From: Yuukianura sp. NJ FZ-2021
Taxonomy: Eukaryota
Direction: 5' to 3'
Length of the DNA stretch: 64,000 nt
NCBI GenBank assembly: GCA_046563655.1
Contig: CM102289.1
Span: 1,178,001 to 1,242,000 of the forward strand
The position numbers and the translations under genes were made by a program. Below, in pieces: positions 3,525 through 50,122 of the stretch. The first letter of the stretch is position 1. Each line of letters opens with the position of its first letter. The notes beneath the pieces were generated by a model, which worked only from the letters and a program-made list of their open reading frames with translations, had not been told where the DNA came from and did not search any database.

Positions 3525-4409
3525 TCAACTTTAGCTGCTTCTGTTATTAAATTTGCTTGACCGCCCTTGTGATCCAATCAACGAAACAATCAATGTTTGG
3601 TTATTTGGACCCAATCAAGATAACTAAACAAAAAGACACAATCACTTAACTAACTAAGTTATAGTCTCATGAGCAGTTTTTTCAGCTTTTCTTGTGAAAA
3701 TATTTGGGGTACTGTACCCAAGGAGATAAGCATAATTAAAAAAAAATCGTGCAAAAGTTGGTTGAGGTAAAGATGATGTGTTACTTGTAACCAATGTTCG
3801 GTATTTGACACAAAATGGACTATTTGGCATTGACTTGCATTGCATTCTTTAGTTATAATAAGTGCAAAACTTTTATAATACCATTTTCCAATCGAAAGAC
3901 GAATCTAAACCACCAGTTAGATGATGGGGTAGACTGCGTGGTTACAATAGAGGAATTTACTTTGTACTCCGCCCAACGATTGAGCTGATATAAACAAAAC
4001 GTTGTCAGAGAAAAGCTAAAATCAAACAATACGCCCCACTAAAAAGTTTCACAAAAAGACAATGAAAAAACGGCTCGTGAGACTACCCAAGTAAGCGACA
4101 GTGTCTATTTGTTTGTTTTCTTGGATTAAATGACTTCCATTGCCGAAAAATAAACAAAACCAAATTGCCTAAGTGTAGGATATTTGCACTTAAAAGACCA
4201 CATCTGGCGTAACTAAAGTGTTAAAAACGTCATTTTCCTGTTAACCTTTGAAATGAACGGAAGTGTGGATTCTTTCTGAAAGTTTTCACCTCACACAGTT
4301 AAATTGGATAGTTCTTTTGACAGCTTCTATCGGATTTGAAGTTAGGCTTCCTGGTAATATCTCCAGTACACAACTATGGATTTAAATATTACATAAAAGT
4401 CGAGACATT

Positions 4410-9472: not shown

Positions 9473-10314
9473 TTTTCGAATTTTAACTTTGTGTAATGCT
9501 TCATAAGTAATTTGAGCCGCACTGCTAAGAAAATTCGTGCTAAAAGTAGTTTAATTTGCAACTCATTTTTAAGCGTCGGAGTGGAAACCACAAGGTCAAT
9601 TAACTAATCAAGGTGAGCCGCAGTAGATATAGAGCATTGGAGATCACTACGTTGAAACAGTTCGTCACTTCCGTTTCTGATTTCAATTTTTGCAAAAATT
9701 TGCATGAGCAGGAAACTTCTTTCATTTTTATTACACATTTTTGTATTACCGTATTTTCCCGTAGATAACGCGCTCTGCCGTATAATGCGCACCAAAAAAA
9801 ACCTCTCAAAATATAAGTTTGACATTCCGTGCTAAATGCTTTTTGAGTTGGAACTAATTCAAATTACAAATTCATACAGTAGACATTTCGTGTTGAATAA
9901 AATTTTAGAATAAAAAGCTTCGTCTCTTGGACAAAGCAAACTCAATTTTCAATTATATATAACTTAAGTCGACATTTCGTGTAGAATCTATTGCTAAATT
10001 CTTTTTGTTTTCTAACATAACTCTAATTAACTAATACATATAGTAGGCATTTCGGTAGAACAAATCTCAAAAATAAAAACTCCGCTCATCACACATTGCA
10101 TGGCAATGAAGTGCATAAAATTGTGCCTTTTTCACATAACACCGCTGCAGTCTAACTACTCGACTCCTCTTCTCTTCTCTTTTTTTTTTTTTTGCAAACT
10201 TCCCTTGGCCTCGAAGCTGGAACTTTCTGTACTAGTTGCAAAATGAAACGGTGCATGTGCCGTTTTTGGTTTTTCGTAAAAATTGTTGTCATTATACTTG
10301 CAGTAGTAATTTTA

Positions 10315-10432
10315 GGGGAATCAAGAATCTCTGAAGAGCAGCCGATTTTGGAGGAATCAGGAATTTCTGAAGAATCGCTGATTTTGGAGGAATCAGGAAT
10401 TGCTGAGGAATCGCTGATTTTGCAGGAATCAG
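10315..10432 (+). repeat. Coding 36-bp minisatellite (EESGISEESLIL, about 3 copies)
   Basis: 12-aa acidic repeat after the signal peptide, absent from the paralogs in this window. Confidence 0.85.
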
Positions 10433-11375
10433 AGACCTCAGATAAATCAACTGCAACTATGGAAACCAAATGTTTAAAGGATTCAAGTGTTGCGTATCAA
10501 ATTGAGAACTTGCATCTACTGATAAATCAGTTTCCACATAGTGACAATTTGATAATTGCTCAAAATCAGCAATTTGAAATAACTTCAAGTTTTGCTGTTC
10601 CCATAAAATTGTATTACTTGTGCCAAAAAAATGTAAGTTGCAAACAAAATTTCACGTTAGCTGACAATCCTATTGTACAATACATTGAGATCTCTGGTAA
10701 CAAACTAAACTACTTTGAAGTTTTCCTGGTATTTCCAAAGAGAATTTCCTCAACAGACGACATGCTCGATAAGGGCAGGGTAATAGTACAGGATATGAAA
10801 TTTGATAATATCGATCGAACGCTAGGTGTTTCAATTCACATAATTGATTGTAAGTACCGCAGCAACATTACCATATCACTGATGTATTACCTCCCCTTTG
10901 CATTTGTGTTCTATCATAACCTAACATCACAGTCTCAACTCTTACACAATGTTCAGGAATATCACGTTTCACAAATTCTGTTGCAGTACAGAATGATTGT
11001 AGAGGATGGCATGTACTTATGGGAACATAAGTTGTACAAGATGAACACAACGCAAGCACTGTCTTTTAACCAATTTCGACAAGTGACTGCAGCAGTTGAG
11101 GCAGAAGCAAGGAATGACATTTTTTTTGGAGATCAAAACATAACTGAAGGCATAATATCCGTAGATGAATTTTTAAATCCTTTCCAGAAGCAGGAACATA
11201 ATTTTCATGACTGCATTAATTTACTTTTACATTACAGACATAGAGTTCCATTAAGGTTGAAAGACATAGCATATAATAAGACAGCTTCATGGAATAACGC
11301 TTACGGTTTCAGTTTAACTTCACCGAATTCGTGGATCCCAAAATTTTTTTTTCTAGTTAAATATGAAACAACTGG

Positions 11376-14300
11376 TGTAATATATGCATTCATGCATCTT
11401 TTTCTGTTCCTTTCTTACTGTCGTGTGAAATGCAATCTAAGCATCTTCACACCCTTGACACTTCTACAATGTCAATTGAGTTCTCTTAATTCGGAAATAA
11501 ATTAGTCACTCTGGTTTTGTAATTAGACGAGTAAAGTCTATCATACAAATGTTCTAGCAGAACATTACATTGGCGACGAGAGTGCTTTCCAGTTAAAGTA
11601 TTCCCCATTACATGTTGCCTGTGCCAAAACAACCCAAAGAGGAAAAGTCAGCAGATTACGCTGTACGCGAACGTATCATAACCATGACCTCCGCAACTGT
11701 TGGTGTCCTTCCTCCGTTTTGTGCAACCACGGACGATTTTGAAGACTGGATAATGATTTTCGAATCCTTTTTGTGTGCCAACGGCATTGACCCGACGAAG
11801 GATAGCCACAAGGCCCGTGCCAAGGGTGTTCTACTTTCGTCAGTTGGACTCCCCACTTTCTCTCTACTGTCAAGTTTAGTGTCTCCTAAAAAACCCACCG
11901 AAGTGGATCTCTCGATTCTCGTCGAGACCCTTCGTGTCCATTTCAAACCTCCTCCTAAGGCTTTGTCGGAAAGATTCAAATTTGCTTCGAGGAAACAACG
12001 GAATGGGGAAACGGCTTCCATGTTCCTAGCCGAATTACGTAAGTTAGCAGTAACATGTAAATTTGACACTGCTCTAGAGGATCGTCTCCGCGATCAATTC
12101 ATTTTTGGCCTCATCAACGAAGCTGCTCAGAAACGAATCTTGATTCGTGACGACAACCTCACCCTGTCGGATGCTTTGCAAGTAGCCACAGCCCAAGAAG
12201 CAGCTGAAGCCGGCACTTCGACCATACGAGAAACCAAGTCAGAGGTCAACTACACCTCTACTCGCGGTCGTGGGTCAGGTCCGCGTCCACCTTCCGGTCG
12301 TGGCCGAGGTGGCGGACAACACAATTCAAAACGCGGTGGGAAGAGTGCCCCGCCCAAGAAGAACCAATCCAACAACAGTTGCCCTAACTGCGGGTCAACT
12401 GAACACTTCAAGGCCAAGGACTGCCCCCACAAAGACGTTGTGTGTCATGGGTGTGGTAAAAAGGGCCATTTTAAAAAGTACTGTCGCAGTTTACCGAAAG
12501 CGACTAACGAGACACGAAATGTAGTTGAAGTGGACTACAACGTCTCAAATGTATTCACAATTTCCCAAGGAAATTCTGTTGATGCTGAATACATTGCAAA
12601 AGTCAAAATCAATGACTTTCTCCATGAAATGGAATTTGACAGTGGCTGTCGCCGGAGTCTCCTCAGTGAAAGTTTTTGGAGTGAAAGTTTAGGTTCTCCA
12701 CCGTTGCGAAAGTCAACCCAAGTGTTTCGGTCGTTCACAGATCACACTTTCAAACCCCGAGGGGATTTGGACGTTAAACTGACTTTCAATGGACAAACCA
12801 AGAATTATACATTCTGTGTAGTGAAAGGACGATCACTCTTCGGCAGAGATCTGATCCGGTTGTTTAAATTGAACCTTTCACTTTCACCCAAGTGTAATAG
12901 TGTGTCCCCAGTGCCCACACTCAAGTCTCTCCTTGCAGAGTTCTCAGACATTTTCTTACCCCCAAGTGGCACAATTCAAAATTTTAAAGCCAAAGTCACG
13001 CTGAAGGAAGATGCTACCCCGCGATTCCTCAAGGCCAGACCAATCCCTTTTGCCCTACGAGCAAAAGTGGACATGGAACTCGACAGAATGGAGAAATCTG
13101 GTGTTATTTCTCGCATTGACCATTCAGAGTGGGCGTCTCCACTCGTGGTAGTTCCAAAGGCCAATGGGAGAGTGCGTATCACAGGTGATTTTAAACATAC
13201 AGTGAACTCCCAACTCCACGTCAACCAGTACCCACTGCAAAGGGTTGATGACCTTTTGACCTTGATTTCGGGTGGTTCGACTTTCTCGCGTCTCGACGGT
13301 CCAGACGCCTTTCACCAGCTTCAGTTGGATGAGTCCAGCAGAAAGTTTTTGGTGATTAACACACATAAAGGTTTGTATCAGTATAATGTGTTGCCACAAG
13401 GAATTGCATCATCGCCCGCCATATTTCAAGAGTTTATGGACGAACTTTTGAAGGGAATACCGATGACAGGCTCTTTTATGGACGATTCGTTGACCAGTGG
13501 TGCCACCGACAGTGACCATATCAAGAATCTTGAACAAATTTTTCTGCGCATGCGCACGGCAAACTACAAACTTGCCATGTCAAAGTGTCAGTTTCTTCAA
13601 AAATCACTTGATTTTATGGGCTTTGTGCTTAACCAGAACGGTGTTTCCACTTCCCCAGAGAAAGTGAAAGCCCTCAATTCTATTCAACGTCCCACTTCAG
13701 TGACGGAAGTGCGTTCGTTTATGGGACTTGTGAATTTCTACGGACGTTTTGTTCCTGGACTTTCACACATTAGTGCTCCCTTGTACCGATTGACTCAGAA
13801 GGATGTCGTGTTCAAATGGGATCAAGCCTGTGACCGTGCTTTCTCCCAAGTGAAAGTGGCCCTGTCCAAGTCACCAGTGCTTGCCCATCACACCCCCTCA
13901 CTCCCCATAGGCATAAGTTGTGACGCTTCACCTATCGGACTAGGAGTTGTACTCTTTCACCGTTTCCCAGACAACACGGAACGCCCGATCGCATTCGCGT
14001 CTAAGCTGCTTTCTCCGACGGAACGTCGCTACGCACAAATAGAACGTGAAGCCCTGGCGATTGTGTTTGGTGTCAAAAAGTTTCATCAGTTTTTGTGTGG
14101 TCGTTCGTTTCAAATTATAACCGACCACCAGCCCCTACTTTCGATCCTTGGACCCGGATCGCCCGTTCCGAGTTTCACTGCAACTCGAATTCAGAAGTGG
14201 ACTCTGTTTTTAAGTCAGTTCGCTTTCACCATGGACTATCGCCGCACCACCGATCACGGCAACGCCGATGCATTTTCCCGGCACCCGTCGACCGATCCGA

Positions 14301-15527
14301 CCGAGCTCGATCCGACCACCGAAGCTGAGGTGAATCTCATCAGTGCCCAAACCATGGAACATTTACCGGTGGATAGCAAAACAGTCCGAACTGCGACGGG
14401 GAAGGATCCCATCCTTGCAGCCGTCCTTCGCAAAATTATTGATGGTTGGTCCCCGACCCCACCATCCAAAACCGATCCACTATTTCCGTTCTACGGTCGT
14501 CGTGCTGAGTTGACCCTAGTTCAAGACGTGATTCTCTGGGGTCGTCGGATCGTCATACCCAGCTCGTTACGCACCCGGATTATGGCGAACCTCCACGAGA
14601 CTCATGCTGGAATAGTGCGCATGAAATCCATTGCCCGCCAACATGTCTGGTGGCCTGGGATTGATTCGGAGATCGAAGACGCTTGTCGGTCATGCAACTT
14701 CTGCATCCAGCGCCGTCCGAATCCGCCGTCCGCGCCGCTACACCCATGGGAATTCCCTGAAAGGCCGTGGCAGCGTCTGCACATTGACCTCGCCGGTCCG
14801 TTCAAAAACAAGATGTGGCTCGTCATAGTTGATGCCCACTCCAAATGGCCGGAAATTTTTTCCCTCGGAAACAACTCTACTTCGGGATCGGTCATTTCCC
14901 GAATTCTGGAATGCATCGGTCGATTCGGACTTCCGGATCAAATAGTCTCCGACAACGGTCCGCAGTTTACTTCCTACGAATTTAAGTCCTTTTGTCGTCA
15001 AAATGGTATTAGGCACTCCACGAGTACCGTATATCACCCCCGCTCCAACGGCGAGGCGGAACGATTTATTCAAACATTTAAATCCTCCTTATCTGGTTTC
15101 AATGGGGATTTAACCACACCATTGCAAAGGTTCTTGTTCCGGTACCGTATCACACCGCACCCTACAACGGGCGCAGCTCCTTGCGAACTCCTTCAAAACC
15201 GACCGCTCCGAAACACACTGCACCTGCTGCATCCGGATTCCGCTCTGACTGCGTCCCGCGCTCAAGCTCACCAAAAGGAGTGTTTTGACCCACACGCCAG
15301 AGATCGGCAATTCGGTATTGATCAAAAGGTTTGGGTCCGAACCTTTTCCAAAAACGAACCGACTGTCTTTTCTTACTGTCGTGTGAAATGCAATCTAAGC
15401 ATCTTCACACCCTTGACACTTCTACAATGTCAATTGAGTTCTCTTAATTTGGAAATAAATTAGTCACCCTGTTTTTGTAATTAGACGAGTAAAGTCTATC
15501 ATACAAATGTTCTAGCAGAACATTACA
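11376..15527 (+). mobile_element. Ty3/Gypsy LTR retrotransposon, Mag-like
   Basis: 5' LTR 11376-11569 (TGTAA...TTACA), PBS TGGCGACGAG at 11571-11580, 5'-truncated 3' LTR about 15363-15527, and 5-bp TSD ACTGG (11371-11375, 15528-15532). Confidence 0.97.
11612..15463 (+). CDS. Gag-Pol polyprotein (Gag with two CCHC knuckles, PR, RT, RNase H, IN)
   Basis: LRDQFIFG, CPNCGSTEH/CHGCGKKGH, FDSG protease, WASPLVVVPK, LPQGIASSP, FMDD, CDAS...YAQIEREALAI, HHCC plus LHIDLAGP...IVSDNGPQF...SNGEAER. Domain order is PR-RT-RH-IN. Confidence 0.96.
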   Translation: MLPVPKQPKEEKSADYAVRERIITMTSATVGVLPPFCATTDDFEDWIMIFESFLCANGIDPTKDSHKARAKGVLLSSVGLPTFSLLSSLVSPKKPTEVDLSILVETLRVHFKPPPKALSERFKFASRKQRNGETASMFLAELRKLAVTCKFDTALEDRLRDQFIFGLINEAAQKRILIRDDNLTLSDALQVATAQEAAEAGTSTIRETKSEVNYTSTRGRGSGPRPPSGRGRGGGQHNSKRGGKSAPPKKNQSNNSCPNCGSTEHFKAKDCPHKDVVCHGCGKKGHFKKYCRSLPKATNETRNVVEVDYNVSNVFTISQGNSVDAEYIAKVKINDFLHEMEFDSGCRRSLLSESFWSESLGSPPLRKSTQVFRSFTDHTFKPRGDLDVKLTFNGQTKNYTFCVVKGRSLFGRDLIRLFKLNLSLSPKCNSVSPVPTLKSLLAEFSDIFLPPSGTIQNFKAKVTLKEDATPRFLKARPIPFALRAKVDMELDRMEKSGVISRIDHSEWASPLVVVPKANGRVRITGDFKHTVNSQLHVNQYPLQRVDDLLTLISGGSTFSRLDGPDAFHQLQLDESSRKFLVINTHKGLYQYNVLPQGIASSPAIFQEFMDELLKGIPMTGSFMDDSLTSGATDSDHIKNLEQIFLRMRTANYKLAMSKCQFLQKSLDFMGFVLNQNGVSTSPEKVKALNSIQRPTSVTEVRSFMGLVNFYGRFVPGLSHISAPLYRLTQKDVVFKWDQACDRAFSQVKVALSKSPVLAHHTPSLPIGISCDASPIGLGVVLFHRFPDNTERPIAFASKLLSPTERRYAQIEREALAIVFGVKKFHQFLCGRSFQIITDHQPLLSILGPGSPVPSFTATRIQKWTLFLSQFAFTMDYRRTTDHGNADAFSRHPSTDPTELDPTTEAEVNLISAQTMEHLPVDSKTVRTATGKDPILAAVLRKIIDGWSPTPPSKTDPLFPFYGRRAELTLVQDVILWGRRIVIPSSLRTRIMANLHETHAGIVRMKSIARQHVWWPGIDSEIEDACRSCNFCIQRRPNPPSAPLHPWEFPERPWQRLHIDLAGPFKNKMWLVIVDAHSKWPEIFSLGNNSTSGSVISRILECIGRFGLPDQIVSDNGPQFTSYEFKSFCRQNGIRHSTSTVYHPRSNGEAERFIQTFKSSLSGFNGDLTTPLQRFLFRYRITPHPTTGAAPCELLQNRPLRNTLHLLHPDSALTASRAQAHQKECFDPHARDRQFGIDQKVWVRTFSKNEPTVFSYCRVKCNLSIFTPLTLLQCQLSSLNLEIN

Positions 15528-17626
15528 ACTGGTTTTTTAACTTGTGATGGCATCAGTGATTGGCTTTCTTTTGAAATATATGCAAAACCATATAAGAGTT
15601 ACGCATGGGGTGCAATATTAGGAACAGGCGTTTTGTTAATATGTTTTGTTACTGTGGTAACTCCTCACCTAAACTTATTAGTTTGTTTGGATATTGGATT
15701 TTTATTTTTCGGAAGTTTGATGGATGTTTTTCCTAAAACACAAAATACTACACGAAATCGTGTTATTCCTGTAATTAGTTTGTGGATGTTGTTAACTATA
15801 ATCCTTACTAATGCATACAAGGGAGTAGTAGTTTCTTATTTAACTAAGTCAAAACCAGTTACAGGAGCATATGAAAATTTCAATCAGTTGGAGAACTTCG
15901 TCGTACTAACAATGCCCCATCTAGCTACGCGTGATTACTTCGTCGGCATATTAAATGAGCCTAGATGTTCTGGCACCCCAGAAGTGCAGAACCTCTTTTA
16001 CTGTGAATGTAAAAATGTGCAGGAATATGGAGAAAATTATGAATGGGATATATGCAAAATTGGGATTACTGAAAATGTTGCCTACAAGCGCATAGTAAGT
16101 TTCACCAAATCGGACAGTTTCCAATGCCTGGAGGCATCAACACCCTATTGCCGGGATTTTTATGAACATTTTAGCATAGATAAATGGAGAATCAATAAAA
16201 GTGAGGTAGACGAGACAAACGTAAGGGACAAATTTCCCAACGAATTTATACTTGCTGAATTTCACGTGTTGTCAAAAGTCAATAATTTTCAACCAGACGA
16301 CCTTGAACTTCAAAGACTTTTACAAATTCTGTCCATTTGCACCAAGATAGCCATGTTTGGACCGGATGAAACTTTAAATATGCTTTTGGCATACCATGAA
16401 AATAAAGTAGGACATGGAGATGGAGATTCACATACTGCTGGACACAAGACAGTCCACTTCCGTAAAGGAACTCAAACATTTGGTAAATTTCCGCTTGGCT
16501 ACGAGTTAGTTGAGCGACATCAATACACAGGATTACAACAACTCATGCACTCTGGAATTTATCAATTGTGGCAAAAGTGGTTCCACATCACTACACCTTC
16601 TGGAACCGATAAAATTATGAATGAACACGAAAAAACAAAATTGCTGAACCAAGGACCGAAACAACTAAAACTAACAGGAAACTTTATGACAACTTTTTAT
16701 TTGATTTTTTGTTGTATGTGTGCTATATGTAGTATAGTATTCATTTATGAAATACGAACACTAATTTATATTTGGATGATTGATGCCAAAAATGCCTACT
16801 GTCGGTTGAAAGTTACCATTTCAAGTTATGTAAACCTAGAAAGACGAAAACTTTAAAGTTTCCTTCGTTGCCTACAAACCTTAATACTTAAACTACAATA
16901 CTTAATGTAGAAATAATATATTAAAAACTAAATACGTCTAGTGTACACAGAAACCCTCACTTTCATAGTAACAATTTCAATTTACTTGTTGGGAACATTT
17001 TAATAGAAATTGTTACTACGACTAATTGGAATTACAAAAGTTGTAAAGTTATTAAGGATGGAGTAACTGTAAAAGCGGTTGGTTTTAATTTGCAATAAAA
17101 TAAAATAAAGCAACACTCACGCCTGTCAAGTGTCGTCGATAAAAAAATGGAATTAAAGTTTCAAGGAAAATTCAGTGTTTCTGCTCAATTTGACATCTGA
17201 AAACTTGTATTATTGCAAAATATCTCTATTTTATACCATCTTTCAATTTGGCAGAACAAGAAATTGCTGTGCAGCTTGAAAGTTTGCGTTTTTGTCTATT
17301 TTTGAAATACTAGGAAACGGTATAGAACATTCAATGAAGGTTCAAAATAACCACGCACATGAGGATGTTTTCATTATTAAATATTTTCCAGTTCCAGAAT
17401 TTTTTCTTCTATTTAGGAAGTAAAACAATGTCAAAACATTGATGATCAAAAATTTTTATTTCAAGTTTTTCAAATTTTTGAACAACAATTTGAAAGCTTT
17501 GTTTTTAGTCACTATCCGGGAAGGGGAAAATGAACCTTATCGACCTCGACTTGCTAAAATTTGAACATGAAAAATTACTTTTTAAAATGAATTCAAGACA
17601 AATCATGAAAATTTTGAAAAGGCACC

Positions 17627-19739
17627 TTATGCAAGCGAAACTGCATGAGCCGGTTTTCCTTCACTGAAAATTCTCACACAAATTTTGAATTCCTGTCCAG
17701 TTGTCATGGCGCTGGGAACAATCAAGTATTTTCCCGCCTTCAACACGTAGTACTCACTCATACTGTTGAAATTTGCAATTGGAGCTTCCTTCTTCCCCTC
17801 GGGGAAAATTTCATTGCCCCAATTCTTCTGGAAGAACTTTTTGTCAAAAACGGTCTCATTTTTCACCTGAAATGACAAAAAAAAAAATTAAATTTTCAAA
17901 ATTTTATATAGAAAATTTTGAAATTTACTGGAAACACTCGAATTGTGAATCCATCGCCCACGTCCTTCCACAACTTTTGTTGTATAAGCGTTCCAACGAT
18001 CAGCAGTCCCTTTTCCGTTTCCGGAGTCATTTCGACCAAAAATGCCGGATTTTCCCACAAGTTGTCTAAAGTTGGAAATTCAAAAGTTCAAAATTTGGAA
18101 AAAGAGTTTGAAATTTGTTTTCTGGGAAGCTTGGGCGGGAATTTTTGCAAAATCTCAACTTACCCCAACCGCCCGCTGTTTTCTTGGCTACGCTCCACTC
18201 AGTATGGAACTCAGCGTAGCTGTTCTTGGCGCCTGCGTGGTTGACCGTTTTCGAATCAAAGTACCAACATGACGAAATGTCTTCGAAGTACGTCTTAAAA
18301 TCTTCGTAACTGATCCAGAATTCGCCTTCATCTTTGTTGATATGCTCCATTTCTCTCTTTTGCTTTTCGTTCACTTCTTTCCACTTTGGTGAACTGTCGC
18401 CCCAATCGCCTTTCCACTCTTCTTTTCCCCACGGATTGCGCATGCGCAGTAAATTGTATTTGTTGCCATTTTCGGTTGTTACCACCCTGGCTCCAGTTAC
18501 AGAGTAAGCATGGTTGGTAACAATGTTAAATTTCTGTATCCAAAAAAAGTTTACAAAAAAATGTTTTTCAAAATTTCATTTTGAGACACTACGTTAGCTT
18601 CGGTTTTCGTTCCAGCTCCAAGCACGCAGCTACGATCAATCCACTTGACGATTGTTTCAAAAAAGTCGTCCGGAACTTCTCCTTTTTTCAAAGGCATGCT
18701 TTGACCAAATCCACCAATCAGAGCCTCCAGGGCATACATAACGGAGTTTCCAGAAATATGGGAGTAGTCTCCAATCAACCTAAAAAGTTACAAAATTTTC
18801 AATTTTTTGAAATTTTTCAGTCCTTTAGTTCAAATTCTGAAAATGTATCCGTACTTGGCAAATGCCTTCTCGAGCAAAATTGGCCAAAATTCGGCTTTTT
18901 CATTGTCTGGATAAAAATTGCTTGCAATTGCCCAAGTTTTTTTATCCGTTACGACGCAAGGCAAGTAGTCGTCCACAACGACGTCAACCCAGGATCCCTG
19001 GTACCAAAATCTGCCAAAATGCAAAAAAGTAAAATAAAATTTTCAAACTTTTATAAAATTTTGAAATGTACCTAAAATGGTAGACTCCTTCGTCATTGGT
19101 TTGATTGTCATCAGGAACCACAAAGGAAATTAATTCCGGAACCATTGAAACAGCAGAAATTGAGCACAAAAACCAACAGTCGCCAACCGCTCCCTGCTGA
19201 ACGTCGTTTCGAGCAATCGTTTTTCCAATTTCGCCGCAACTGAAACAAGGTACGTTCTTGTCTCCGTACACCTTTTTACAAACGTCCTGTTTTTCAAAAT
19301 TTCAAAAAAGAAATTAAAATTTTGAAGCTTAAGTCCTGATAAACATCTGATTCAAGCTAACCGCAATTCGTAGCCACGCTGCAGTTCCGTTCCATCCTTC
19401 ACTTTTCCACCTTTGAAAGCTTTTAGCGCTTTCGGGATTGGCGATGTCAAAAAGTTCGGCGTAGTCGCCAACTGAAGTGTCGTCGTGGAGGAATTCGGGA
19501 TCTTTGAAATGCGAACCGCGGGATTTTTTCAAAATGTCGTGAAAAACCTGTGCACGGTGCTCGTGGCTCTTGAGGTCAGTGATTTTTTCCAACTCGGGAT
19601 CTCCATACTACAAAATCATGATAATGAAGTACAATAAAATAATATATTTCATAAAAGTGACCTTTGTTAAATATTTTAAAAGAGGTATAATTGGAGTTAC
19701 ATAGTAGACGGGTTTCCCTTTCACAGTATATGGCGCCAT
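17627..19739 (-). CDS. Second non-classical calpain paralog (CysPc plus short domain III), 8 exons
   Basis: [14 protein letters not shown] and RMRNPWG. Same exon structure as 5901-9472, starting [13 protein letters not shown]. Confidence 0.92.
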
Positions 19740-20556: not shown

Positions 20557-22818
20557 TTACATTGCAAGGATAAGAGTGATGACATTTTGGAGTACAATGT
20601 CTCCATAAATTGTGAGAAGATAAGCTTTGGTGTCCAACACAAATTGTTCTCCAACTTTGAGTTCAATTGGTTTCCTTGAGATCCAAAATTTTTTGGAGAA
20701 TGGCGTAGAGTTGCGCAACATACATTTGCCAGCACTGATACACTTGATAGAATGATTCCATGTGAAATGGCCAAAACAATTTGGCCAAAAGTGAAATGAT
20801 CAGAGGTGAAAAGGCCAGAAGTGAAATGGCCAAAAAGTGAAAATATCAGAATTGAAATGGCCAAAAAGTGAAAAGGCCAAAATCTAAAAACGCCAAAAAG
20901 AAAATGGCCAAAAAGTGAAATGACCAAAAAGTGAAAACGCCAAAAAGTGAAAAGGCCAAAATATGAAAAGGCCAAAAAGTAAAAAGACCAGAATTAGGAA
21001 AAAAAATACCTTCAGTGGGTAACTCGGTTTTCTACATTTTTTAAATACAAATATGACCCCCTGCCACGAAAATACTAATTTTTTTGCGATCTGCTTGAAA
21101 TATTTCAAATTTTTAGAAGATGTAAAAAATGGGAAAATATTCCATGTTAACTTTTTCTAAACAAACAAATCCCATTTTTTGAAAGTTAACCAAATCTAAC
21201 CTAAATACTATAACAAAATTGCTTAAGCACTTAAAAACGTAACCTAACCTAACAAAATATAAGCTAAGACATATTTTGAGAAAAAATTAACGTGTGACCT
21301 TATAGCGAAATTGCATTTTTCACAATTTTCCGAAAATTCAAAATTTTTGAGAACGGGCCAAAAAAAAAATTTTTCATAGTCAGGGGGTCTTATTCGCAAA
21401 TAAAAATAAAAATAAAAAAAATGCGAGTAACCCACTGAAATTAATTTTTTCCTAATTCTGGTCTTTTCACTTTTTGGCCTTTTCATATTTTGGCCTTTTC
21501 ACTTTTTGGCGTTTTCACTTTTTGGTCATTTCACTTTTTGGCCATTTTCTTTTTGGCGTTTTTAGATTTTGGCCTTTTCACTTTTTGGCCATTTCAATTC
21601 TGATATTTTCACTTTTTGGCCATTTCACTTCTGGCCTTTTCACCTCTGATCATTTCACTTTTGGCCAAATTGTTTTGACCATTTCACCTGCTACGGATAG
21701 AATTGACGTGACAGAGAACAGCTAAACTGATTGCTTCCGTAAGTACAAACACAATTACTATGGTAGCCAACATAAAAAATAAAAGGATAACAAGATACCG
21801 CAGATTGAGCAATTTGACAAAAGTATAACAAAATGTTATGAGTACTATAATTGCAGTGTACAAAACAAATAACACGACGCCTGCAAATACGTCGTTTCCA
21901 AACTTGTTCATAACTTGGTGACATGCGAATATAGATCTCTGCTCTGCCAGCCTTGACTCCTCTTCCATAGTTTTACTATCCAGACAACAAATTGTGATTT
22001 GTAATTGATTGAAAAGTTAAAATTTAATTTGAATTACCTCAATTTTTGAAGCCAAAGACGTGTTCCATTGGTGTATATTAGGACACAATAAGCAAAGAGG
22101 AGCACAGAATAAACTCCGTTGATATATGCCAGAGAGTAGAGTACCGTTACGATTGAACTTACTATTGTAACAATAATTCTACTAGGATCTACTCCAAAAC
22201 AATACAGCAAAGTTGTTTGAAATATGAGATAATTTGCTTGACTTATTTTGTTGTCCATTAATATAGAGAACGTTATTACTGCCGGTATTAAAAGTATTCG
22301 GCTACAAATAAATATCCCGAATATTGATTTTAACACAACTTCATACCCATCCTTTTCCTCCGAATTTAGTGAAACCTTGTAAGATTTGACTAAAAACAGC
22401 AAAATTAACGTAGATTTAAAAAAAATTGTTATATTGCCTGTAAATATGGATGAAGAAACTCACGAAGTCCATTATTGAATTTTATGAATGTTGACAATAT
22501 TGATAAAATTGAATCCCTGAATGTAAAATGCCAAAGTTGCATACCACACCACAGTATGGTGACAGCAATTAGTCCAATCATAAACACCAACTCCGCGTTT
22601 TCACAGCGCAGAAGTACAGCAGCAGCAGTAAAGAGTAGAGCAGCGACGCAATTCCATACAACACTCACTGCAGTAAGTGCATTGGAAATATTTGTGTTGT
22701 TACTTTTAATTGTAACTAACTCTTTGCCTTGCTGTACAATTTTAAAATTGTAAGCATTCCATTTCCAACCTTCCTGAAATAATTTTAGTGCATATTTCCA
22801 GGTTGTTTCTGATAACAT
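20557..22818 (-). pseudogene. Gustatory-receptor-like gene whose last exon is interrupted by a foldback element
   Basis: Exons 22818-22464, 22389-22038, 21975-21696 plus 20745-20557 give 391 aa ending HVNSI|KCISAG...KKFWISRKPIELKVGEQF...IVLQNVITLILAM*. Confidence 0.82.
20754..21695. mobile_element. Foldback-type non-autonomous DNA transposon, 942 bp, 8-bp TSD
   Basis: About 250 bp of near-identical inverted arms built from ~15-bp subrepeats (GGCCAAAAAGTGAAA). TSD GATAGAAT at 20746-20753 and 21696-21703. Confidence 0.92.
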
Positions 22819-23710
22819 TTTGACCCGCTGTCAATATCTTAGAGATATATCGATACTTCGATTTCTGAGATACTTGAATGTATTTATTTAACTATCGCAG
22901 AGCCAAGTATAACACCAAGCCGCTAAAGTTAAACTTCTATAATACACCCATAAACCAAAAGTCCTCTCCCTGGGATTGGCGAAAATTAAATTTTGACGAA
23001 GTGGGTGTGGTTCAAAATGAAAATTTTTATGGATTAGGTTACAGTCTAACGATAAAAAAAATCGGCCCGGGACAACCGGAGTGTGCAGAAGTAGCGAAAT
23101 GTGTGATTGGTGTCTATCCAAACAATTATGTATTTGTGGCAATTCAACATTCGAGTCAATACTAATAACGACGGACTGCCAGTTGGCAGTTTTGGCTTCC
23201 ATGGAAACCGATGTAAACCAACGTGCAAACCCTTTCTGTGTTTGATTTTAATAATTTACAGAGAGTATTTCTTTAAATTGAACCTCTTCAGTAATTTTCA
23301 GCAAACGAATTTATTTTTAAATAAAGAACGGAAATTGGATTTTAGTTTCAGTTCATTTTGACATTCGAGGAGCAGAATTATGAATGTTTAACACAAGGTT
23401 TGTAAACAACGAAATAATTTTTTCTTCAACAGGTTAGGCAATAACTCAAGCGTTTTAAATTTTGTTTAAAAATTAGCAAAACTTGGTTCACCGTGCCTTC
23501 CTATGGTAATGATTTATATGCAATCAAATGGGATTGGGGGAAAATTGGGGGAAAAAATTGTTTCGAGGGAATTTTTTCGTAAACAGGACTTATTGCCAAA
23601 CCTCTTAAAGCAAGACAATTTCGTTGCTATAGCAACCTTGGTTCAACACAAGACGAAGACATAAATAAATAAATAAACAAATAAATACGTACTTAGTAGT
23701 TTACTAGAAA

Positions 23711-25713
23711 CTACCAATACTCCGGGGCGAGACTGTCCAAATACTGTATCTTCTTGTCCAAAATTTTTTGAATGACGCGCTTAAATTTAATTTTTTTCTT
23801 GATTTTCTTTGCTTTCTTCTTCTTTTTCTTTTGGTATTTCTTGTAACCTGCAAAAAAAAATTAGAAATTCCGTAAATTTTCTTAAAACCTGTCCTCGTTA
23901 AGTAAACATTGACTTTGAATATTGAGTTCAAAATTTTTCGATTGAAAAATAATTGGCACTTTGCAACAAAAACCTCCAACGAAACAAAATCTTACTTTTG
24001 GAATTGAGAATTTTCAAGTCTTTCTTCGTGAGTCCTTTGAATTCATCCCAAAGTGGATCATACTTTTTCTTGTGTGCGTGATGATGGTGGTGGTAATGAC
24101 CGTGGCTGCAACACGCAAAATTTTCAAAAAAAAAATTGTTGCTTTTTTTTTGAAAAAAAAACTTTTCCTAATTGTTTAAACAAGTTTTCCAAAAAAGTGT
24201 AACGGAAAAGTGGTCCTCACGCAAGGCACAGGAAAGAGGAACTTGTTTAAAATTATTTCCTGAAATTAAGGTGAATTGGGAACAAGAAGGAAGAAAATAT
24301 ACAAAGTAATTTACACAACTACTTAAATAAAATATATAAAATAAAACAGTTACATAGAATAATGTAAAAAAAACATAAAAATTTATTTCACTCCATTTTT
24401 CTCTAAGTCATACCAACCACTCGAGTGCATTAATTTTGTGCTTAAGCAAAAGACTCAAAATTTTCTTCAACTCGATATTGTTTTGTAAAAATGCAATTTT
24501 GCTCTTGGCTTTCAACTTGTAAATTTCGTATTTGAGTTTGATTTTGTCATATTCCGGTCCGTGACCCGAGTCCCAGCCCCACCCGTGACCATGGTGACCG
24601 TGACCAAAGTGGAAGTGACCTCGACCTGAATGTGGATTCGCATGATCGGAGAACCATGGCTCATCACTGCTGAAAGCAAATGAAGTTACTTGGCGTTAGT
24701 TTTGATCGAAAGGCGCTAAAAAGCAGACTGATACAATTTTTGTGAAAAAAAAAATAAAAAAAAAAATGTTGTGTTTTTGTAATAAGTTATTTTATTATCC
24801 AACAAAATCAAGAAAGTTATAAGCTTTGATGAGCGGAAACGTAGTGAGTTCCTTGAATTCCCATTTCAAAATTTTCTTCCACTTCTTCTTCCTTTTGTGT
24901 TCTTTGTACATTTCAATTCTCAACTTTTGAACTTCCGGATCCAGGTCGGGGTCAAATCCATGAATCGGAATTGGTTCGGGTGGACTCGGAACCCACCTTC
25001 GGAGTAGGTTTACGTTAGATTAAGTTAAAATTTTTGCCGCAAAAGATCAAAATTTTGTTGTAAATTTATAAAATTTTTGCAAAACAATAAGAAAGTCAGA
25101 AAAGGAACCAGAATTTAACGTTTGTTTTGTTTGTTTGAATTTACATGGGTAAAAGCTGATTTTGAGTTTGTTCATTTTTTTTTGTTCGATTTCAAAAATT
25201 ATTTTTAACTTACTCGGCATGGTGATCCGGCTTGCTTTTTGTTACGGAGACTTTGAATGGCCACAAAAATCGAAACATTGAACTGCGCTCGTCGTTTTGT
25301 GCAGAAGAATTTTCAACTTCTGTTTGTGCAGCTTCTGAACTCTTCTTTATCAAGCGCTTTCTAGCGGCTGGTTGGATTTCTTCAGATGAGGGTGGAGTTT
25401 TTGGTAACTTTGCATCTTCATGTGCTTCCTACAAATTCAGAAGTAAAAACATCTTAAAAATGCAAAAAGATATTTAGTAGAAACACTTTTTTTTTTAAAA
25501 ATAAAGCGTTTTTATGAAATTTCGAACCTCAGAGTTGCTGTCGTGCACAACGCCACCAAATCCAAGAGCTTCTGCAGAGTCCGACTCTTCAAAAGCTAGA
25601 CGCCGCGGTGGTAGGAGAATGTAAGGGCGTGGTCCGTTGAGAAAAACTTCCTGAGCATGCGCAATGCTTTGGCAAAAACATGCGCAGAAGAGAGTTAAAA
25701 GCAAGAGTCTCAT
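23711..25713 (-). CDS. Uncharacterised secreted protein with three alternative terminal exons
   Basis: Common exons 25713-25528 (signal peptide) and 25428-25214 end in phase 2. Three downstream phase-2 acceptors open stop-terminated frames: A 24996-24795, B 24669-24408, and C 24105-23996 plus 23847-23711. Confidence 0.72.
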
Positions 25714-26110
25714 CGTGACCAACACTGAGCCACTTCTGAGCAGTCACTGACTAAAACAAGCTCATCTTGAACTTGAAGTTGACGTGCAGAACAACACGAA
25801 ATGAAAAAAATAGTTTCAAATTGAAGTATTTTCAATAATTTGAGGTAAATGGCACTACTCACTTATTTTCTGGTTTTTGACTCATGCACATCAAAAAATA
25901 TTGACAGTTAAGAACGAGAATCAAAAAAGGAAAAGTTTCTCAAACCAGAATTGGCGTTACACTTTCAACTTTTTGACGCAATTACACTAAACCGGAACAT
26001 AAAAACTTAAAAAAAAATCAAATTCTAAGTTTTTCATATCCTGTGTAGTTTGGCAACAATCCCATTGCAAATCGCCAGAAATTGCTCCCTCTCTCGAGAG
26101 GCTGTAGAGT

Positions 26111-26190
26111 AGAACCTGATAGCTCAATGGCTAGAGGTCTTCCCGAATTGGAAAGTTGTGTGTTCGAATCCCGCTCTGTCCTTTATTTTT
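26111..26190 (+). other. tRNA-derived SINE head or tRNA pseudogene
   Basis: A box TAGCTCAATGG (26120-26130), B box GTTCGAATCC (26162-26171) and a T-run. The acceptor and anticodon stems do not pair convincingly. Confidence 0.55.
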
Positions 26191-26358
26191 TATACGCCGT
26201 TTTTTGTATCTGAAGCCACGTGAGCCCTGAATCTCACAATCGTTAATAATTTTCCGCATCTGACGTGCGATTGTTGGATTACATGATTGAGTAGGTCAAT
26301 TGTTAATTATTAAATGGTCGTGCAAACTTATTGGTTAAATGGAGTTATTTCTATACAC

Positions 26359-29239
26359 TCATTTTTCTTTGTTTGCAAATACTCTCTCAAGTTTAACACT
26401 TTTAAGTTTTAGTATTCGATTTATGGTCAAAATTAAGTTGGGGAGCAAACGAAGTTCGAATATTGCAGAAACAAGAGACAGTACAAGTCCAATTCCCAAC
26501 AGCACAAACATCAACCACATTCTGGCACTCAAATCCAACTTCCTCGGCCCATGTCGGTTTTCACCCACCAATTTCCAAGCCAATTGTGTGTCGTTTTTTA
26601 TATGCATGTCCGTAAGAATAGCCAAGCGACTGACCATGGTGCCAGACTCGGCTAACCGTCTTAACCCCTGTGTCCAATCGTATCCAAGGTCAACCACAAG
26701 TTCAGCCCCAACCATTATATCGTCCATAAACATTGACTTGTCCAGGAAATGATACACTACTTCAATAGGTTTTCTACCAAGACGAGCTGCCACGTTGTCG
26801 TCCAAGTAACGCTTGGCTATTGCAGTATCCAGTATCTCAGAACCCATTGCAAATTCCTTTTTGCACTGCATTACAGGCTCTACGTCCGAATCCTCACATG
26901 GCGGGATTTGCAGATTTTTAAGAAGGTTGTAAGCGGTGAGTCCAGCTTTGCCCTGCTTCTTCAAATGGGCCATGGACATTTGTGCATCTTCAGTCCATGA
27001 TAACATACCATCAAAAAGGATTCTGGTGCCCACCCCTTTAAGGCTCTCCATTCGAATCATTTGTGACATGGCAGTAAGGTGTTTCGAACAAATCTCTCCG
27101 CCCTTGATTCGCTCACTTCTCATCGGACGCAGAATTAAGTTGAGACGATCTTTATGATTGCAACATTCGGTGTACAAGGGATAATCCTTAGCAGAAACGT
27201 CTAAAAATTTATAGTTTCGATCAATAGCCGTTTCGAAGGAATCCAATTCCTGTCTTGGAAATGGAAGTGCAAGAGATGTAGTTACCACTCCCTTGTACCC
27301 ATGCGTAAGCACCAGGGTCATAAACAGAAACATTACGGTAAAAATTTTGAGTCCTTTCCCGACTATTCCTGAAATGTTGGGCAATGGGTAGCCCACTTCT
27401 AGGAACGTACTGTACATAAAAATTGGAATTCGAAGAGACACGGTGTCGTAGTGGGGGCGTACGACAAAGAATGTTGAGACAAAACTAAATGAGACAACCA
27501 GGCAAATCCATGTAGATACCGTAAATGGGCGAATATAGTTTGCAACTCCAACCTCCACACCCTCGTGGTAGCACGTATAGCCATAAGTGACAGTTTGTTT
27601 AAACAGAAATGTCCATATAATGGTCAGTTGGTTAAGAGCGGAGTAGGAGTAGTAGATAAATCGAACGATGACCTCATCTACACAAAAAACAGAGGAAAGA
27701 ATGCAAGTGAATCCAGGTTCATGACAACCAAATTGAACTTTCTCTAACGTTAAAGAGAGTATTTCATTGTCCATCAACCTTGTAAATCAAAAAAAAAAGA
27801 TATTAAAACCAATGTAAATAGAATAATATTAACGAGGGAACCTTTCCTACCGTTCGTTGAGCTTTTGAATTTAAAAAAAATACAGTCGTACTGTGTATAT
27901 CAAAAGACAAGTTTCTGCAGTAGTTTCGGTTACCAACACCAAAAAAATGTACCCCGACCAGGGCTCGAACACGTAGCGCCATTGCCAACAAATGAGCAAA
28001 AAAAAAAATTTGTCAAATTCTTCAACTGAAAATGTGTTTAGGATGTTATATCATGTAATCCGGATATTTTCTGTTGAATAATTCGACATAAAAAGAATAT
28101 TTTTCCTCATTTTTCTGGAATGGAGCCATGGGTCCGAGTCCAGTCCAGGTCGGGGGTACTTTTTTTTTGGCGTTGGCAACGGAAACTACCACGGAAAATA
28201 GTCTTTTGACATTCACAATATGACTGTATTTTTTAAATTCAAAAACTTGACGATCGGTAGGAAAGGTTCCCTAGTAAGTACTATAAACTCTTGTAATAAG
28301 TTTACGGTACGCAGTAATGATACCTGCATTCCTGTCAAGATTAAATGTTTGGTTAAAAGGTGCCAGAAGAAACTGACGCATTGTAGGAATCAAGTACTTA
28401 GATAGTTGCACATCTTCCCCTGCGCCGGCTGATAGACGAATCGGCAAAGTTTGAAGAACTTGTTGCTGCAGTGACTTAAGTTTCAGAAACAGTGGCAATT
28501 GTGTACTGAGAACCAAAAAGTTGGGCATGCTTAACCCCGGAACTCCAATGATTACTTCAAATTGTCCACCTACTGTTGCTCTTTTGCATTCCTTGTAGAC
28601 TACTCTCGTGACCCAGCGACTAAAATAAGTATGGTGGTTTATTTTGACCTTTGACTTGCTCACAGTTTTGCTTTCTTTGACGATAGACTTGAATGTGCAG
28701 GAGTCTGTTACTATTTGTAACAGAGGTTGATGTATAAGGTATGTCTCTGCTGTCTTAATATCAAGATGCATATATGGTTCACCATTTGGTGCTTCGCTCG
28801 TGTAAAATAAAACGGGCAACCAATAGCTCTCCAAGTACTCAAACATATGAAACTCCTGTTTACTATTCCGTGGAAAAATTGCTGTGACGCCAACACAATT
28901 GACGTTTTTTACCATGTAGTGAGGCTTGTCTTGGGGACAGAATGACGGAGTTTTGGTTTCAATGACATTACCAATCGTTGTCACTATAGCGCAAAAACTT
29001 GCATTGTAACGCCTAGGTCGGGCCATTTTGCCATTGTGAGCCAACGTTAATGCGTATGAACTGTTGATATTTGTAGAGTTGGAGTACATAATGACATGGT
29101 TGTAGCAATTGGCCCAACTCCCGCCCAAATACAAATCCAAGTTCAAGTGTTCGATGAAAACGCAACTGCACAACTCAACTCCACCACACAGTAAGATAAA
29201 CTCCAAACAAAAAGTATATTTTGGATCCATTTTTGACAT
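26359..29239 (-). CDS. Two-exon IR-like chemoreceptor (exons 29239-28324, 27677-26359; 744 aa)
   Basis: Signal peptide, LYLGGSWANCYNHVI, pre-M1 YIRPFTVSTW, TM2 LTHGYKGVVTTSL, S2 end RLAESG and TM3. Phase-1 GT-AG intron. Confidence 0.8.
27835..28272. mobile_element. MITE with ~130-bp imperfect TIRs in the IR intron
   Basis: AGGGAACCTTTCCTACCG... at 27835 is the reverse complement of ...CGGTAGGAAAGGTTCCCT at 28272. Confidence 0.85.
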
Positions 29240-36452: not shown

Positions 36453-38270
36453 TTATTTAAAAACTTTCCAAGATTCTAGCGGCATTTTTTGGAGTCTCAA
36501 AATCGTTGGTCTTCCCCATGCCAACCAGAGGAATCCAATGACAATGCAGACCACACTCTCCACATAGTAGCCATCAATCTTCACTAAACAAGGGTCGCTA
36601 GGAGGCGTTGTCATGGCGACCAAATTCAAATCAGATGAATTCGTTCCCGCCAAATCATAAATTGGATCAGATGTGCTTGGCATAGTTCCATTCAGCACAA
36701 AAGTCACATTAGCAGCACTTTTTTGTTCAATTGGTTTCCAGAATACGTCATGCACAAAACCCGCACAAGTGGTGACGTAAATTGCAACATAATCCACCAA
36801 CCACAAAGCCACCGTTTGAGTCCACATGCCTCCTACATTACTTATCGTATTGATCAGCGTCATATAAGTTCCACCAATCGCTGGATCGCTGATTTTTGCA
36901 GAAAATGCCATTCCCGACACAAACATCGTGTAGACTGGAATAAGATGAAGAGCAAACACTATAAACAGGATTGTGTAGTACATTGATGGTAGCTCTCCAT
37001 TTTCCATGAAAGATGGAGTCCATAGGATGACTATAGGAAAAACAAGCCCGAACATGATGTTAAACGGGACTGCGGTAATGTAAACTCCCATTGCATTTGA
37101 ACCCACTGTGTAGCGGGAAATTAAAATCGGAAGTAAGAGTTTAATTGGAATCAACGGAATTGAGAAAAACGCAACCCATTCTTTAGGAACTCCATTTTCA
37201 ACTAGTTTCAATCTCGCCATGGCATCAGTCGCTGCCCATCCAATTTTCACTGTGAGGTAGAACGCCATTAGGTACTGCACGTTACGCAGACGCAGGATTT
37301 TCCATAAATTTTTATAACTTGCAAAAATGTTCATGTGTTGCTCCGAAACAGCGGCGCATTCTTTTTCCTCTTTTTTGAAAATTAGGATTCCGGTGGTCGT
37401 TACAGCAAAAACGACGCCCCAGAAAAACAGAAATTGCGGTAACGTTACAAATCCGTAGTCGAGCGGTTCCGTTCGAAATTTGTTTGCAAAAGTTGGTGAA
37501 TTGAGTGCCAAAAATCCAGAGTAGCCCATCACTGCTCCTAGTGTCTGTCCAACGGCATTACAAGTTGCAGCATATCCAACGTTTTTTGGTTTCAACATTG
37601 TCAGTGCCCATCCGTCCACTGTGATGTCTTGCGTTGCGCACAAAAAATTTAGTATAAAAAACACAACTGTGATGGCCGTGACTTGAACAGAGTCTAAAAG
37701 AGCTTCGATCCGAAAAGTAAGGACAAACAGGAACAGAGCAATCAAATACTGGAGTGGAATCAACCAGCTTTTGCGTCTTCCAAATTTTTCGAAATAAAAT
37801 GAATCCACTATTGGGGCGTAAAGCACTTTTAGTCCAAATGGCCAACCAGCGATACTGAACTGCGCCTGCTCTTTGTACGGCACGTTTCTTGTTTGGAGCA
37901 AAAACGGAATTGTGGACATGATTCCTAGTGGAATGCCCTGTAGAATGTAGAGCAAAAACAAAAGAAAGATTGATGGCAAATCTTCTCTAAAATTTGCTTT
38001 TTGCACATGCGTTGATGCTGGTTCTTGCTTTTCCTTGTCACAAACAGTCCCACTTCCAAAAGCTGGATTTGAATTCCTGATGCCATTTTTGCACTGAGAA
38101 TCTTCGGATTCTGTACAACCCATAATGGCAGAAAACTGTGAATTTTGAACTAAAGATTTTGGGGTTTCCAATGTTGGGTACAAATTTTCAACTGGCGTCG
38201 TTGCCATTGGTGGCTCAAGGTCGGACTCAACAGAGGCAAAAGACTTGAGCTCAATTGGTTTGGATTTCAT
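36453..38270 (-). CDS. SLC33A1: Acetyl-CoA transporter 1 (MFS), intronless, 605 aa
   Basis: LYILQGIPLG, WPFGLKVLYAPIVDS, FGRRKSWLIPLQY, ATQDITVDGWALTML and ISDPAIGGTYMTLINT. Confidence 0.95.
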   Translation of the reverse strand: MKSKPIELKSFASVESDLEPPMATTPVENLYPTLETPKSLVQNSQFSAIMGCTESEDSQCKNGIRNSNPAFGSGTVCDKEKQEPASTHVQKANFREDLPSIFLLFLLYILQGIPLGIMSTIPFLLQTRNVPYKEQAQFSIAGWPFGLKVLYAPIVDSFYFEKFGRRKSWLIPLQYLIALFLFVLTFRIEALLDSVQVTAITVVFFILNFLCATQDITVDGWALTMLKPKNVGYAATCNAVGQTLGAVMGYSGFLALNSPTFANKFRTEPLDYGFVTLPQFLFFWGVVFAVTTTGILIFKKEEKECAAVSEQHMNIFASYKNLWKILRLRNVQYLMAFYLTVKIGWAATDAMARLKLVENGVPKEWVAFFSIPLIPIKLLLPILISRYTVGSNAMGVYITAVPFNIMFGLVFPIVILWTPSFMENGELPSMYYTILFIVFALHLIPVYTMFVSGMAFSAKISDPAIGGTYMTLINTISNVGGMWTQTVALWLVDYVAIYVTTCAGFVHDVFWKPIEQKSAANVTFVLNGTMPSTSDPIYDLAGTNSSDLNLVAMTTPPSDPCLVKIDGYYVESVVCIVIGFLWLAWGRPTILRLQKMPLESWKVFK

Positions 38271-39378
38271 GATGAATTTATGAATTATTCAAAAGTTGCA
38301 CAAGAACAACAACCACAACACTTGTAGCCTTGCAGATCCTTAAAATGTGCCAAACACAACAACAATTGGGGTTTGAAGTTTTGTAAAACTTTACACAGTT
38401 TGAGGCTGCTAAAATTTACTTCTGAAGTGTTTATTTTAAGTTAAGCAGAGAAACATAACCTGAATTTTGGTTGTTTAAGATATGAAATTGAAACGAGAAA
38501 CTACAAATTGAACAAGACTGATAAAATTGAAGTAGTTTGAAGCAGGATTTTGAAAGGTTGAACGTAACTGAAACCAAGTTTAGGAAATGACGGAAGATAG
38601 TTAGAGTCGTGTCTAACAATAGTTAAACTAACATTAACTTTTCCTTCCTAGTCAAACAATAGACTATATCAAGAGTCTACAGAGATATGGAAACTATAAT
38701 TTTGAAATGGAAAATAGTTAACAATGAAAGTGTCCTCTTGAGCGTGCTTATTTTGAACCATCCTTGAAAATTCTATCCTTTCCAAGTATTTCAGAAATAG
38801 ACAGAAACATAAAACCTTCAACCTAAACACGCAATTTCTTGTTCAGACAAAATCCAAATTACGATGAAAACTGATTTTGGAATAATTCAGTCTAAATATG
38901 GCAAATTGAACAGAAAAACTGTATATTCCTAGAAACTTATTTCCAACTTCTTAATCAACGACGAATAACAGTGTTTTTTTTTTTAATTTTATTTGCACCT
39001 ATTTATGTTACAACTTTTACTATTACAATTTGTAGTAATTAACAATTCCTATGAAAGTGTTTAAAATAATCTATCGAACGAGTAGGTGTTTTAAACAGAT
39101 TTTTTCAATTTCTTAAAATAAGTTTTCAAGAACGTAAGGGATGTTGGATGTACAGTAAAACTGCACAAAAGCCAAATTGAAAAAGTGATCACTCGCATTT
39201 CAAAGGCGAAAACAAAAGGAGAGTTTGCTTCTAAATGTTTGGTTTATGAGAAATGTTGACTGTGAATTTTTAAATTACATTAACTCCAACAGTCACTGTG
39301 CAGTTTCTACATTTACAATTAATTAACGGTAGCAGTATTAAAAATTTATTAAACTACACCAACACGGTTCCAAGCAAG

Positions 39379-47791: not shown

Positions 47792-50122
<2,331 letters not shown>

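Follow-up and report, generated by a model that had tools for sequence, protein, structure and literature searches.

A springtail gene family for uncharacterised secreted proteins with three duplicated, alternative terminal exons

Introduction

Genes in which shared 5' exons are spliced to one of several homologous alternative 3' exons are familiar from Drosophila broad, fruitless, lola and mod(mdg4), and most known cases of duplicated alternative last exons come from genes for transcription factors. Here we describe a gene of this layout on the minus strand of a 64,000-nucleotide (nt) stretch of the genome of the springtail Yuukianura sp. NJ FZ-2021 (GenBank assembly GCA_046563655.1, contig CM102289.1, positions 1,178,001 to 1,242,000; hereafter the window, in whose coordinates all positions are given). 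The gene lies at 23711..25713 and, whereas the Drosophila genes encode nuclear BTB/zinc-finger proteins, it encodes a secreted low-complexity protein with alternative helical tails (A, B and C) and has no sequence relation to them. Such a splicing device is not new in kind, and the automated annotation of Folsomia candida already shows it; the searches made here found in print neither its conservation across springtails, nor the common origin of the tails, nor the AAG/GT junction (the slash marks the exon boundary) that opens the first of them.

Two groups of secreted proteins also bear comparison. His/Gly-rich segments are common in arthropod structural proteins, and the His/Gly-rich structural proteins of arthropods and molluscs (cuticular proteins, the His-rich proteins of squid beak) are, like the protein described here, secreted, disordered and rich in His, Gly, Tyr or Trp; they differ from it in that its conserved element is a Lys-rich helix and that it has no chitin-binding Pfam domain. 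A precursor made of signal peptide, acidic spacer, Arg and cationic helix is the layout of frog and spider peptides and of cecropin- and dermaseptin-type peptides. Linear cationic precursors of this sort share the layout of the springtail protein, but here the product is longer, its variety is made by splicing, and it evolves slowly.

Results

An exon for the signal peptide and one further exon lead to a phase-2 donor (DHHA, then GA/GTAAGT), downstream of which three acceptors each open in phase 2 and run to their own stop codon (A, 24797-95; B, 24410-08; C, 23713-11), C with an intron of its own (23995-23848, phase 1). Together with the CTAAC branch points (-22 of the A acceptor and -30 of the B acceptor), this is on the minus strand what the initial annotation had described (Table 1). 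The exon-2 donor is separated from the acceptors by 217 (A), 544 (B) and 1108 nt (C1), and the B acceptor at 24669 has a NAGNAG alternative at 24666. We consider it highly probable, from sequence comparison, that splicing links this donor to a single member of a set of three duplicated terminal exons. The products would be N+A, N+B and N+C1+C2, where N stands for the part shared by all of them.

That the tails are alternatives is indicated by four protein pairs that are identical in their N-terminal part, over 170, 195, 144 and 197 amino acids (aa), and then switch tails: the F. candida isoforms LOC110852002 X3/X1 (A/C) and LOC110856877 X2/X3 (A/B), and the proteins P0004/P0010 (A/C) and P0013/P0014 (B/C). 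All four F. candida RefSeq isoforms carry one tail, as do all 16 motif-plus-tail proteins, among 40 stored proteins, that derive from contigs of 906-1528 nt; one of the 16, P0037, was missed by the tail pattern and was classed as C in a later motif comparison. Intron-free frames on such short contigs point to spliced RNA. In addition, locus L020 has an intron-free N+B junction at the DNA level, and its 5' end is unlike the family.

The genomic arrangement is likewise shared. One donor, several acceptors of the same phase and a stop codon for each tail were found in five loci: the window, a paralogue in the same genome, and three metagenome loci, L019 (exons 1 and 2, A, B), L021 (exon 2, A, B) and L022 (exon 2, A, B, C1, C2). 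The phase-2 donor and the exon order are kept in L019, L021 and L022, and the phase-1 C intron in L022; the sequences of L019 and L021 end before C. The metagenome scan gave at least 597 candidate stretches, with four confirmed among the matches listed.

Protein searches named relatives in F. candida, Orchesella cincta, O. dallaii and Allacma fusca, besides unnamed ones, and found the family nowhere outside springtails; a mussel protein (P0032, E 4e-5, one of 16 matches) was rejected as a repeat protein without the motif or tail pattern. The F. candida products of LOC110852002 (X1, X3) and LOC110856877 (X2, X3) have the same signal peptide, R-x-x-WPF motif and A/B/C helices, and O. cincta Ocin01_04117 and A. 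fusca CAG7824563.1 belong to the same family, with the same three features. The window gene has both the R-x-x-W/F-P motif and the A, B and C helices. These relatives are named uncharacterised or hypothetical, and GenBank models of them chain tails. The initial annotation had called the protein unannotated, which holds for the family as uncharacterised, although RefSeq already lists tail-switch isoforms for F. candida. A search for papers naming the relatives' accessions found none (most subscription papers and bioRxiv supplements were out of reach), and nothing on the family appeared in topic literature searches or in term searches of the supplements of PMC6063884, PMC5490193 and PMC4987106, which covered all files but one.

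When each of five exons was searched against its own genome (98.7 Mb, 22 contigs), one further strong match was obtained, and all five matches fall in the paralogue (L008; minus strand of G000 contig C1, 4421.6-4428.3 kb); weak matches on contigs C3, C4 and C12 had E values of 0.008-0.9. The paralogue has all six exons in the order and phases of the window, its exon C1 having been located by reading the sequence and not by a search match. Lesions are present in five of the six exons. The start codon is missing at the aligned place, exon 2 carries a hAT-like miniature inverted-repeat transposable element with an 8-bp duplication, exon A has an internal stop, exon B holds a 3.9-kb long terminal repeat (LTR) element (5-bp duplication, 214-bp LTRs 98% alike, one LTR copy split by about 210 bp), and exon C2 has an AT-rich insertion. 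The paralogue looks dead, its lesions recent and the duplication old, and the window copy is the one intact gene in this genome. In the flanks of the paralogue (contig C1, 4400-4420 and 4430-4440 kb; L010, L007, L009), a large multi-exon gene that we take by inspection to be VPS13-like lies downstream and retroelement frames lie upstream; none of the flanking genes listed is shared with the window.

Comparison of the two copies gave ratios of nonsynonymous to synonymous substitution (dN/dS) of 0.12 for A, 0.14 for the 3' part of B, 0.17 for C1, 0.06 for C2 and 0.33 for exon 1 (Fisher p from 3.5e-9 to 7e-4), values that are rough because synonymous sites are near saturation (proportion of synonymous differences 0.59-0.79). 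Coding conservation extends to each stop codon. Three of the intron and spacer pairs score within 200 shuffles, the fourth slightly above (35 against a maximum of 34). The initial annotation had made its case depend on the tails being conserved as coding sequence; with tail ratios of 0.06-0.17 and exon order kept, they are. Since the paralogue retains every exon under purifying selection, the window gene is more than a chance gene model.

The idea that B and C form genes of their own, or are dead duplicates, finds an example of decay in the paralogue, yet it is hardly credible. The inter-tail spacers (125 and 302 nt) hold no ATG frame that reaches the next tail, which means that neither B nor C can be an independent gene with a start of its own; moreover, the tails are under purifying selection, and N+B and N+C proteins exist in relatives.

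The tails themselves point to a common origin. A, B and C align ungapped across 40 columns of a cationic amphipathic helix, with register 0 scoring highest among 17 shifts in the A-B and B-C comparisons; the real score was reached by 2 of 1000 column shuffles for A-B, by none of 1000 for B-C and, marginally, by 28 of 1000 for A-C. A 40-residue helix common to the tails without a gap supports exon duplication. The median identity of the helix is 60% within A, 78% within B and 72% within C, against 20-33% between classes, and Allacma helices are 70-80% identical to those of other springtails. The linkers vary among His-, Gly-, Pro- and Trp-rich and align poorly. What is conserved in the sequence is the helix rather than the histidines. 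On two further points the initial annotation has to be modified: it had described all tails as His-rich, but the window A tail is Pro-rich and has 2 His (B has 10), and the K-x-x-x-L-D/E end that it proposed fits B and C but not A; the end motif common to the tails is K-x-hydrophobic-x-x-L-D/E. In trees built on the 40 columns, the A sequences come out as a single group and so do the C sequences, B does not separate clearly, and the trees give no order of duplication (the first tree omitted window A, P0012 A, P0017 C and the paralogue; the second omitted window C and shortened P0001 B). At the DNA level the tails share short AT-rich matches only.

Predicted products are 200-320 aa long. Behind the signal peptide they would have a middle part that is largely disordered and in most cases acidic, then the R-x-x-W-P-F motif, a variable His/Gly/Pro linker and, at the C-terminus, a cationic amphipathic helix of 40-50 residues. 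The N-part is net acidic in 9 of 11 relatives (-5 to -12). The second exon, which the initial annotation had called acidic, is not so in the window, where its net charge is +1. Tails A and B carry net charges of +6 to +9, whereas C reaches +13 to +20, and the best 18-mer hydrophobic moments of the helices are 0.38-0.60. For an N+B relative, the AlphaFold2 model (13 sequences; mean predicted local distance difference test score, pLDDT, 62; predicted template modelling (TM) score 0.29) has a helix at 230-280 with pLDDT above 90 and a short helix at 119-133, the rest being disordered. A complex prediction for the A, C and B helices, in which no alignments were used, scored 0.03 and speaks neither for nor against a complex. 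Six window exons and 15 full-length relatives had no Pfam match above the curated cut-off; in the ESM Atlas, P0006 had a best feature score of 0.77 with TM scores of at most 0.32, and the B helix had no usable match. Three matches in a PDB sequence search (E 0.3-0.5) were treated as chance.

How one tail might be chosen is suggested by the first acceptor. It reads AAG in all five loci, whereas the other acceptors examined, 16 in number, all read CAG or TAG, and GT opens exon A in 5/5 loci but B or C1 in 0/8, while the first full codon varies (Trp or Tyr); the five loci share ancestry and hence are not independent draws. On a simple reading the A acceptor is weak, supported by G at +1, and can be skipped. 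A weak first acceptor would let the spliceosome pass on to B or C, and 3'-end formation after B or C would complete the choice of tail. AAG/GT also regenerates a donor-like site at the start of exon A, which could permit resplicing of A-spliced RNA to B or C. The regenerated site matches the consensus at 7, 6, 5, 5 and 4 of 9 positions in the five loci, in no case exceeding the true donor, and 130-364 nt of intron lie between exon 2 and A; because the site is weak and the intron short, we consider resplicing unlikely. Recursive splicing sites, as presented in the available parts of PMC8605326 and 10.1101/006163, resemble exon A in having a donor-like GT right after the acceptor, but here the intron is short, the acceptor AAG and the regenerated donor weak.

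AATAAA follows B in 5/5 loci, and a signal lies in the interval from the A stop to the B acceptor in 3/5, with neither AATAAA nor ATTAAA there in L019 and L022. The initial annotation had placed AATAAA after both A and B and expected three poly(A) sites: the signal after B stands, that of A overlaps the stop codon, and that of C is distant (Table 1). Because L019 and L022 have no signal before the B acceptor, three separate poly(A) sites are not established, and in these two loci the A message probably runs on to the B site.

Discussion

Taken together, exon duplication with alternative choice of the last exon, as the initial annotation had proposed, is well supported by the ungapped register, the N-identical pairs and the metagenome loci, and the gene that the sequences identify is real, conserved and alternatively spliced, and belongs to a springtail family that is uncharacterised. 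Distantly related springtails have retained duplicated alternative last exons on a secreted protein that fits no known family.

As to function, our preferred, still tentative, proposal is a springtail extracellular structural or surface-coating protein, of the cuticle envelope or epicuticle or of a secreted cement. The helix would bind to lipid, to polyanionic surfaces or to the acidic part of molecules next to it; choice among the three tails would tune charge and hydrophobicity, and the His/Gly linkers would give cross-linking or metal sites. An acidic disordered block joined to a basic amphipathic block would suit self-assembly or lipid and polyanion binding. As background, the cuticle of Orchesella contains glycine-rich structural proteins and lipids, according to the part of PMC9861782 available. 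We put the probability of the whole explanation, three mutually exclusive products of one gene with this function included, at about 0.42. It is a long shot that the isoforms co-assemble through acidic N-regions and cationic helices into a springtail-specific extracellular nanostructure, for example the liquid-repellent epicuticle lattice, their ratio being set by AAG/GT as both weak acceptor and regenerated donor.

Several points weigh against this explanation. The evidence for use of the junctions comes from relatives, and the RNA origin of the short contigs is inferred, not stated by any tool. The homology of A and C taken alone is marginal, a shift of 8 scoring equal to register 0. The N-part in the window is weakly acidic (-4 and +1). 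Among the six window exons and 15 full-length relatives, Pfam gave no chitin-binding or other cuticle domain, and the literature and supplements searched held no expression, localisation or biochemical data for any member. Finally, five genome gene models (P0001, P0002, P0005, P0017 and P0019) chain tails or tail parts. If such models were right, the tails would be constitutively joined into one long protein via donors just before the stops, as in P0001 (A-B-C), P0002, P0017 and P0019, and GT dinucleotides do lie near the window A and B stops; however, the GT before the window stops are in phase 0 while the acceptors are in phase 2, conservation runs to each stop, and one-tailed products are the rule (16/16 from short contigs, 4/4 in RefSeq). 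Chaining is confined to genome gene models, which use GT sites near stops and break at different points. We therefore regard it as highly improbable and the chained models as probably prediction artefacts; public gene models of this kind are worth correcting.

A doubtful but reasonable alternative to the structural proposal is a secreted ligand or a protein of reproduction (for instance of an egg coat or spermatophore, a gland product, or a signal) whose helix would bind a specific protein partner, with one partner or tissue for each isoform. The fixed helix length and the many invariant surface residues per class (22 columns in B, 16 in A) suggest a specific interface, but no partner was identified. 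A male-only role is disfavoured because two tail-bearing genes persist in F. candida, which the available part of PMC5490193 describes as parthenogenetic. Rather unlikely, in our judgement, is an antimicrobial or membrane-lytic precursor, in which the acidic pro-region masks the tail and cleavage at the conserved Arg frees a cationic product. The layout of linear cationic antimicrobial peptides is present, with a cationic amphipathic helix, charged and amphipathic as given above, behind a signal peptide and a pro-region (weakly acidic in the window), and an Arg stands 2-6 residues ahead of W/F-P in 21/21 distinct copies of the family motif. Yet a furin-type R-x-x-R is found in 4/21 copies, the released product would be about 80-150 aa long, the tails contain no Cys, and the helices are strongly conserved across springtail orders under purifying selection, each genome having one or two of the genes. 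Five families of antimicrobial peptides are dealt with in the available part of a springtail survey based on homology (PMC10051947); none of these had a Pfam match here, nor did cecropin, defensin, diapausin, Alo, diptericin or any other antimicrobial family. Deep conservation and a gene number of one or two suggest that a structural or partner-binding role fits better than a fast-evolving antimicrobial peptide. The initial annotation had proposed interchangeable modules, metal-binding or cationic (antimicrobial, adhesive or cuticular), and a metal-binding or detoxifying protein with His-rich linkers could be read from the His runs in B and C1 of the window and in L019 and L021. His content varies, however, the C linkers of F. 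candida being Gly/Trp-rich, and the Lys-rich helix is what is kept (60-78% identical), which leaves this possibility very unlikely.

Conservation among springtails makes the family a candidate for an extracellular material or a defence system specific to them, and its three short conserved helices are easily synthesised.

Feature Coordinates and Other Content of the Window

Table 1. Features of the three-tailed gene and its surroundings (window coordinates).
Feature	Position	Strand	Remarks
12-nt upstream motif	25766..25777	-	sole upstream stretch common to window and paralogue (L008, about 8330-8370); contains AGTTCA; absent in L019
Initiator-like TCAGT	25746..25750	-	37 nt before ATG; similar at -39 (paralogue) and -46 (L019)
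Exon 1	25528..25713	-	signal peptide (by inspection; cleavage after A-H-A); QEVF..G.RPYI.LP motif conserved; phase-0 donor
Exon 2	25214..25428	-	low-complexity spacer; single phase-2 donor serving all tails
Family motif R-F-L-W-P-F-x-V-S-V-T-K	25237..25272	-	in exon 2
Terminal exon A	24795..24996	-	66 aa past junction codon; Pro/acidic linker and cationic helix; acceptor AAG/GT
AATAAA	24791..24796	-	overlaps A stop codon; likewise in paralogue, not general
Terminal exon B	24408..24669	-	86 aa; His/Gly/Trp linker and cationic helix
AATAAA	24382..24387	-	20 nt past B stop
Exon C1	23996..24105	-	36 codons; His-rich linker, helix start; phase-2 acceptor, phase-1 donor
Exon C2	23711..23847	-	44 codons; helix more basic than in the other tails (37 residues, net +17); stop codon
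AATAAA closest to C	23310..23315	-	395 nt beyond C stop

Upstream of the gene, the AGTTCA within the 12-nt motif is, we assume, a nuclear-receptor-like half site, perhaps part of a nuclear-receptor element, and the TCAGT is presumably a putative initiator. A tRNA-like stretch at 26125-26180 (B-box-like, by eye), possibly a short repeat element, lies between the three-tailed gene and a receptor gene; ARAGORN over the window and Rfam over 22000-28000 gave no matches, at this stretch or elsewhere.

Elsewhere in the window, a cluster of long, intron-poor ionotropic-receptor-like frames extends over 26359-58381, several as separate N- and C-terminal frames, with weak Lig_chan matches at 26359-27786 and 44422-46812, and hydrophobic multi-exon chemoreceptor-like frames with no significant Pfam match lie at 21684-22830 (-) and 4386-5701 (+). 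Another receptor-like gene (10156-11505, 15516-16856) is split by an LTR retroelement-like insertion at 11408-15527 (+), which has a 1288-aa frame with gag-pol-like motifs (by inspection) and 162-bp direct repeats 97.5% alike. From their translations we take two exon sets at 5901-7641 and 18066-19301 (-) to be calpain-like and a gene at 48469-49689 (+) to be acetylcholinesterase/carboxylesterase-like. The window also holds an acetyl-CoA transporter at 36453-38288 (-; Acatn, E 6e-101), an EF-hand protein at 62623-63120 (-), and a 394-aa intron-free frame at 1056-2240 (-) that resembles Lactonase beta-propeller proteins weakly (E 1.5e-4, just under the cut-off) and is possibly a horizontal acquisition.
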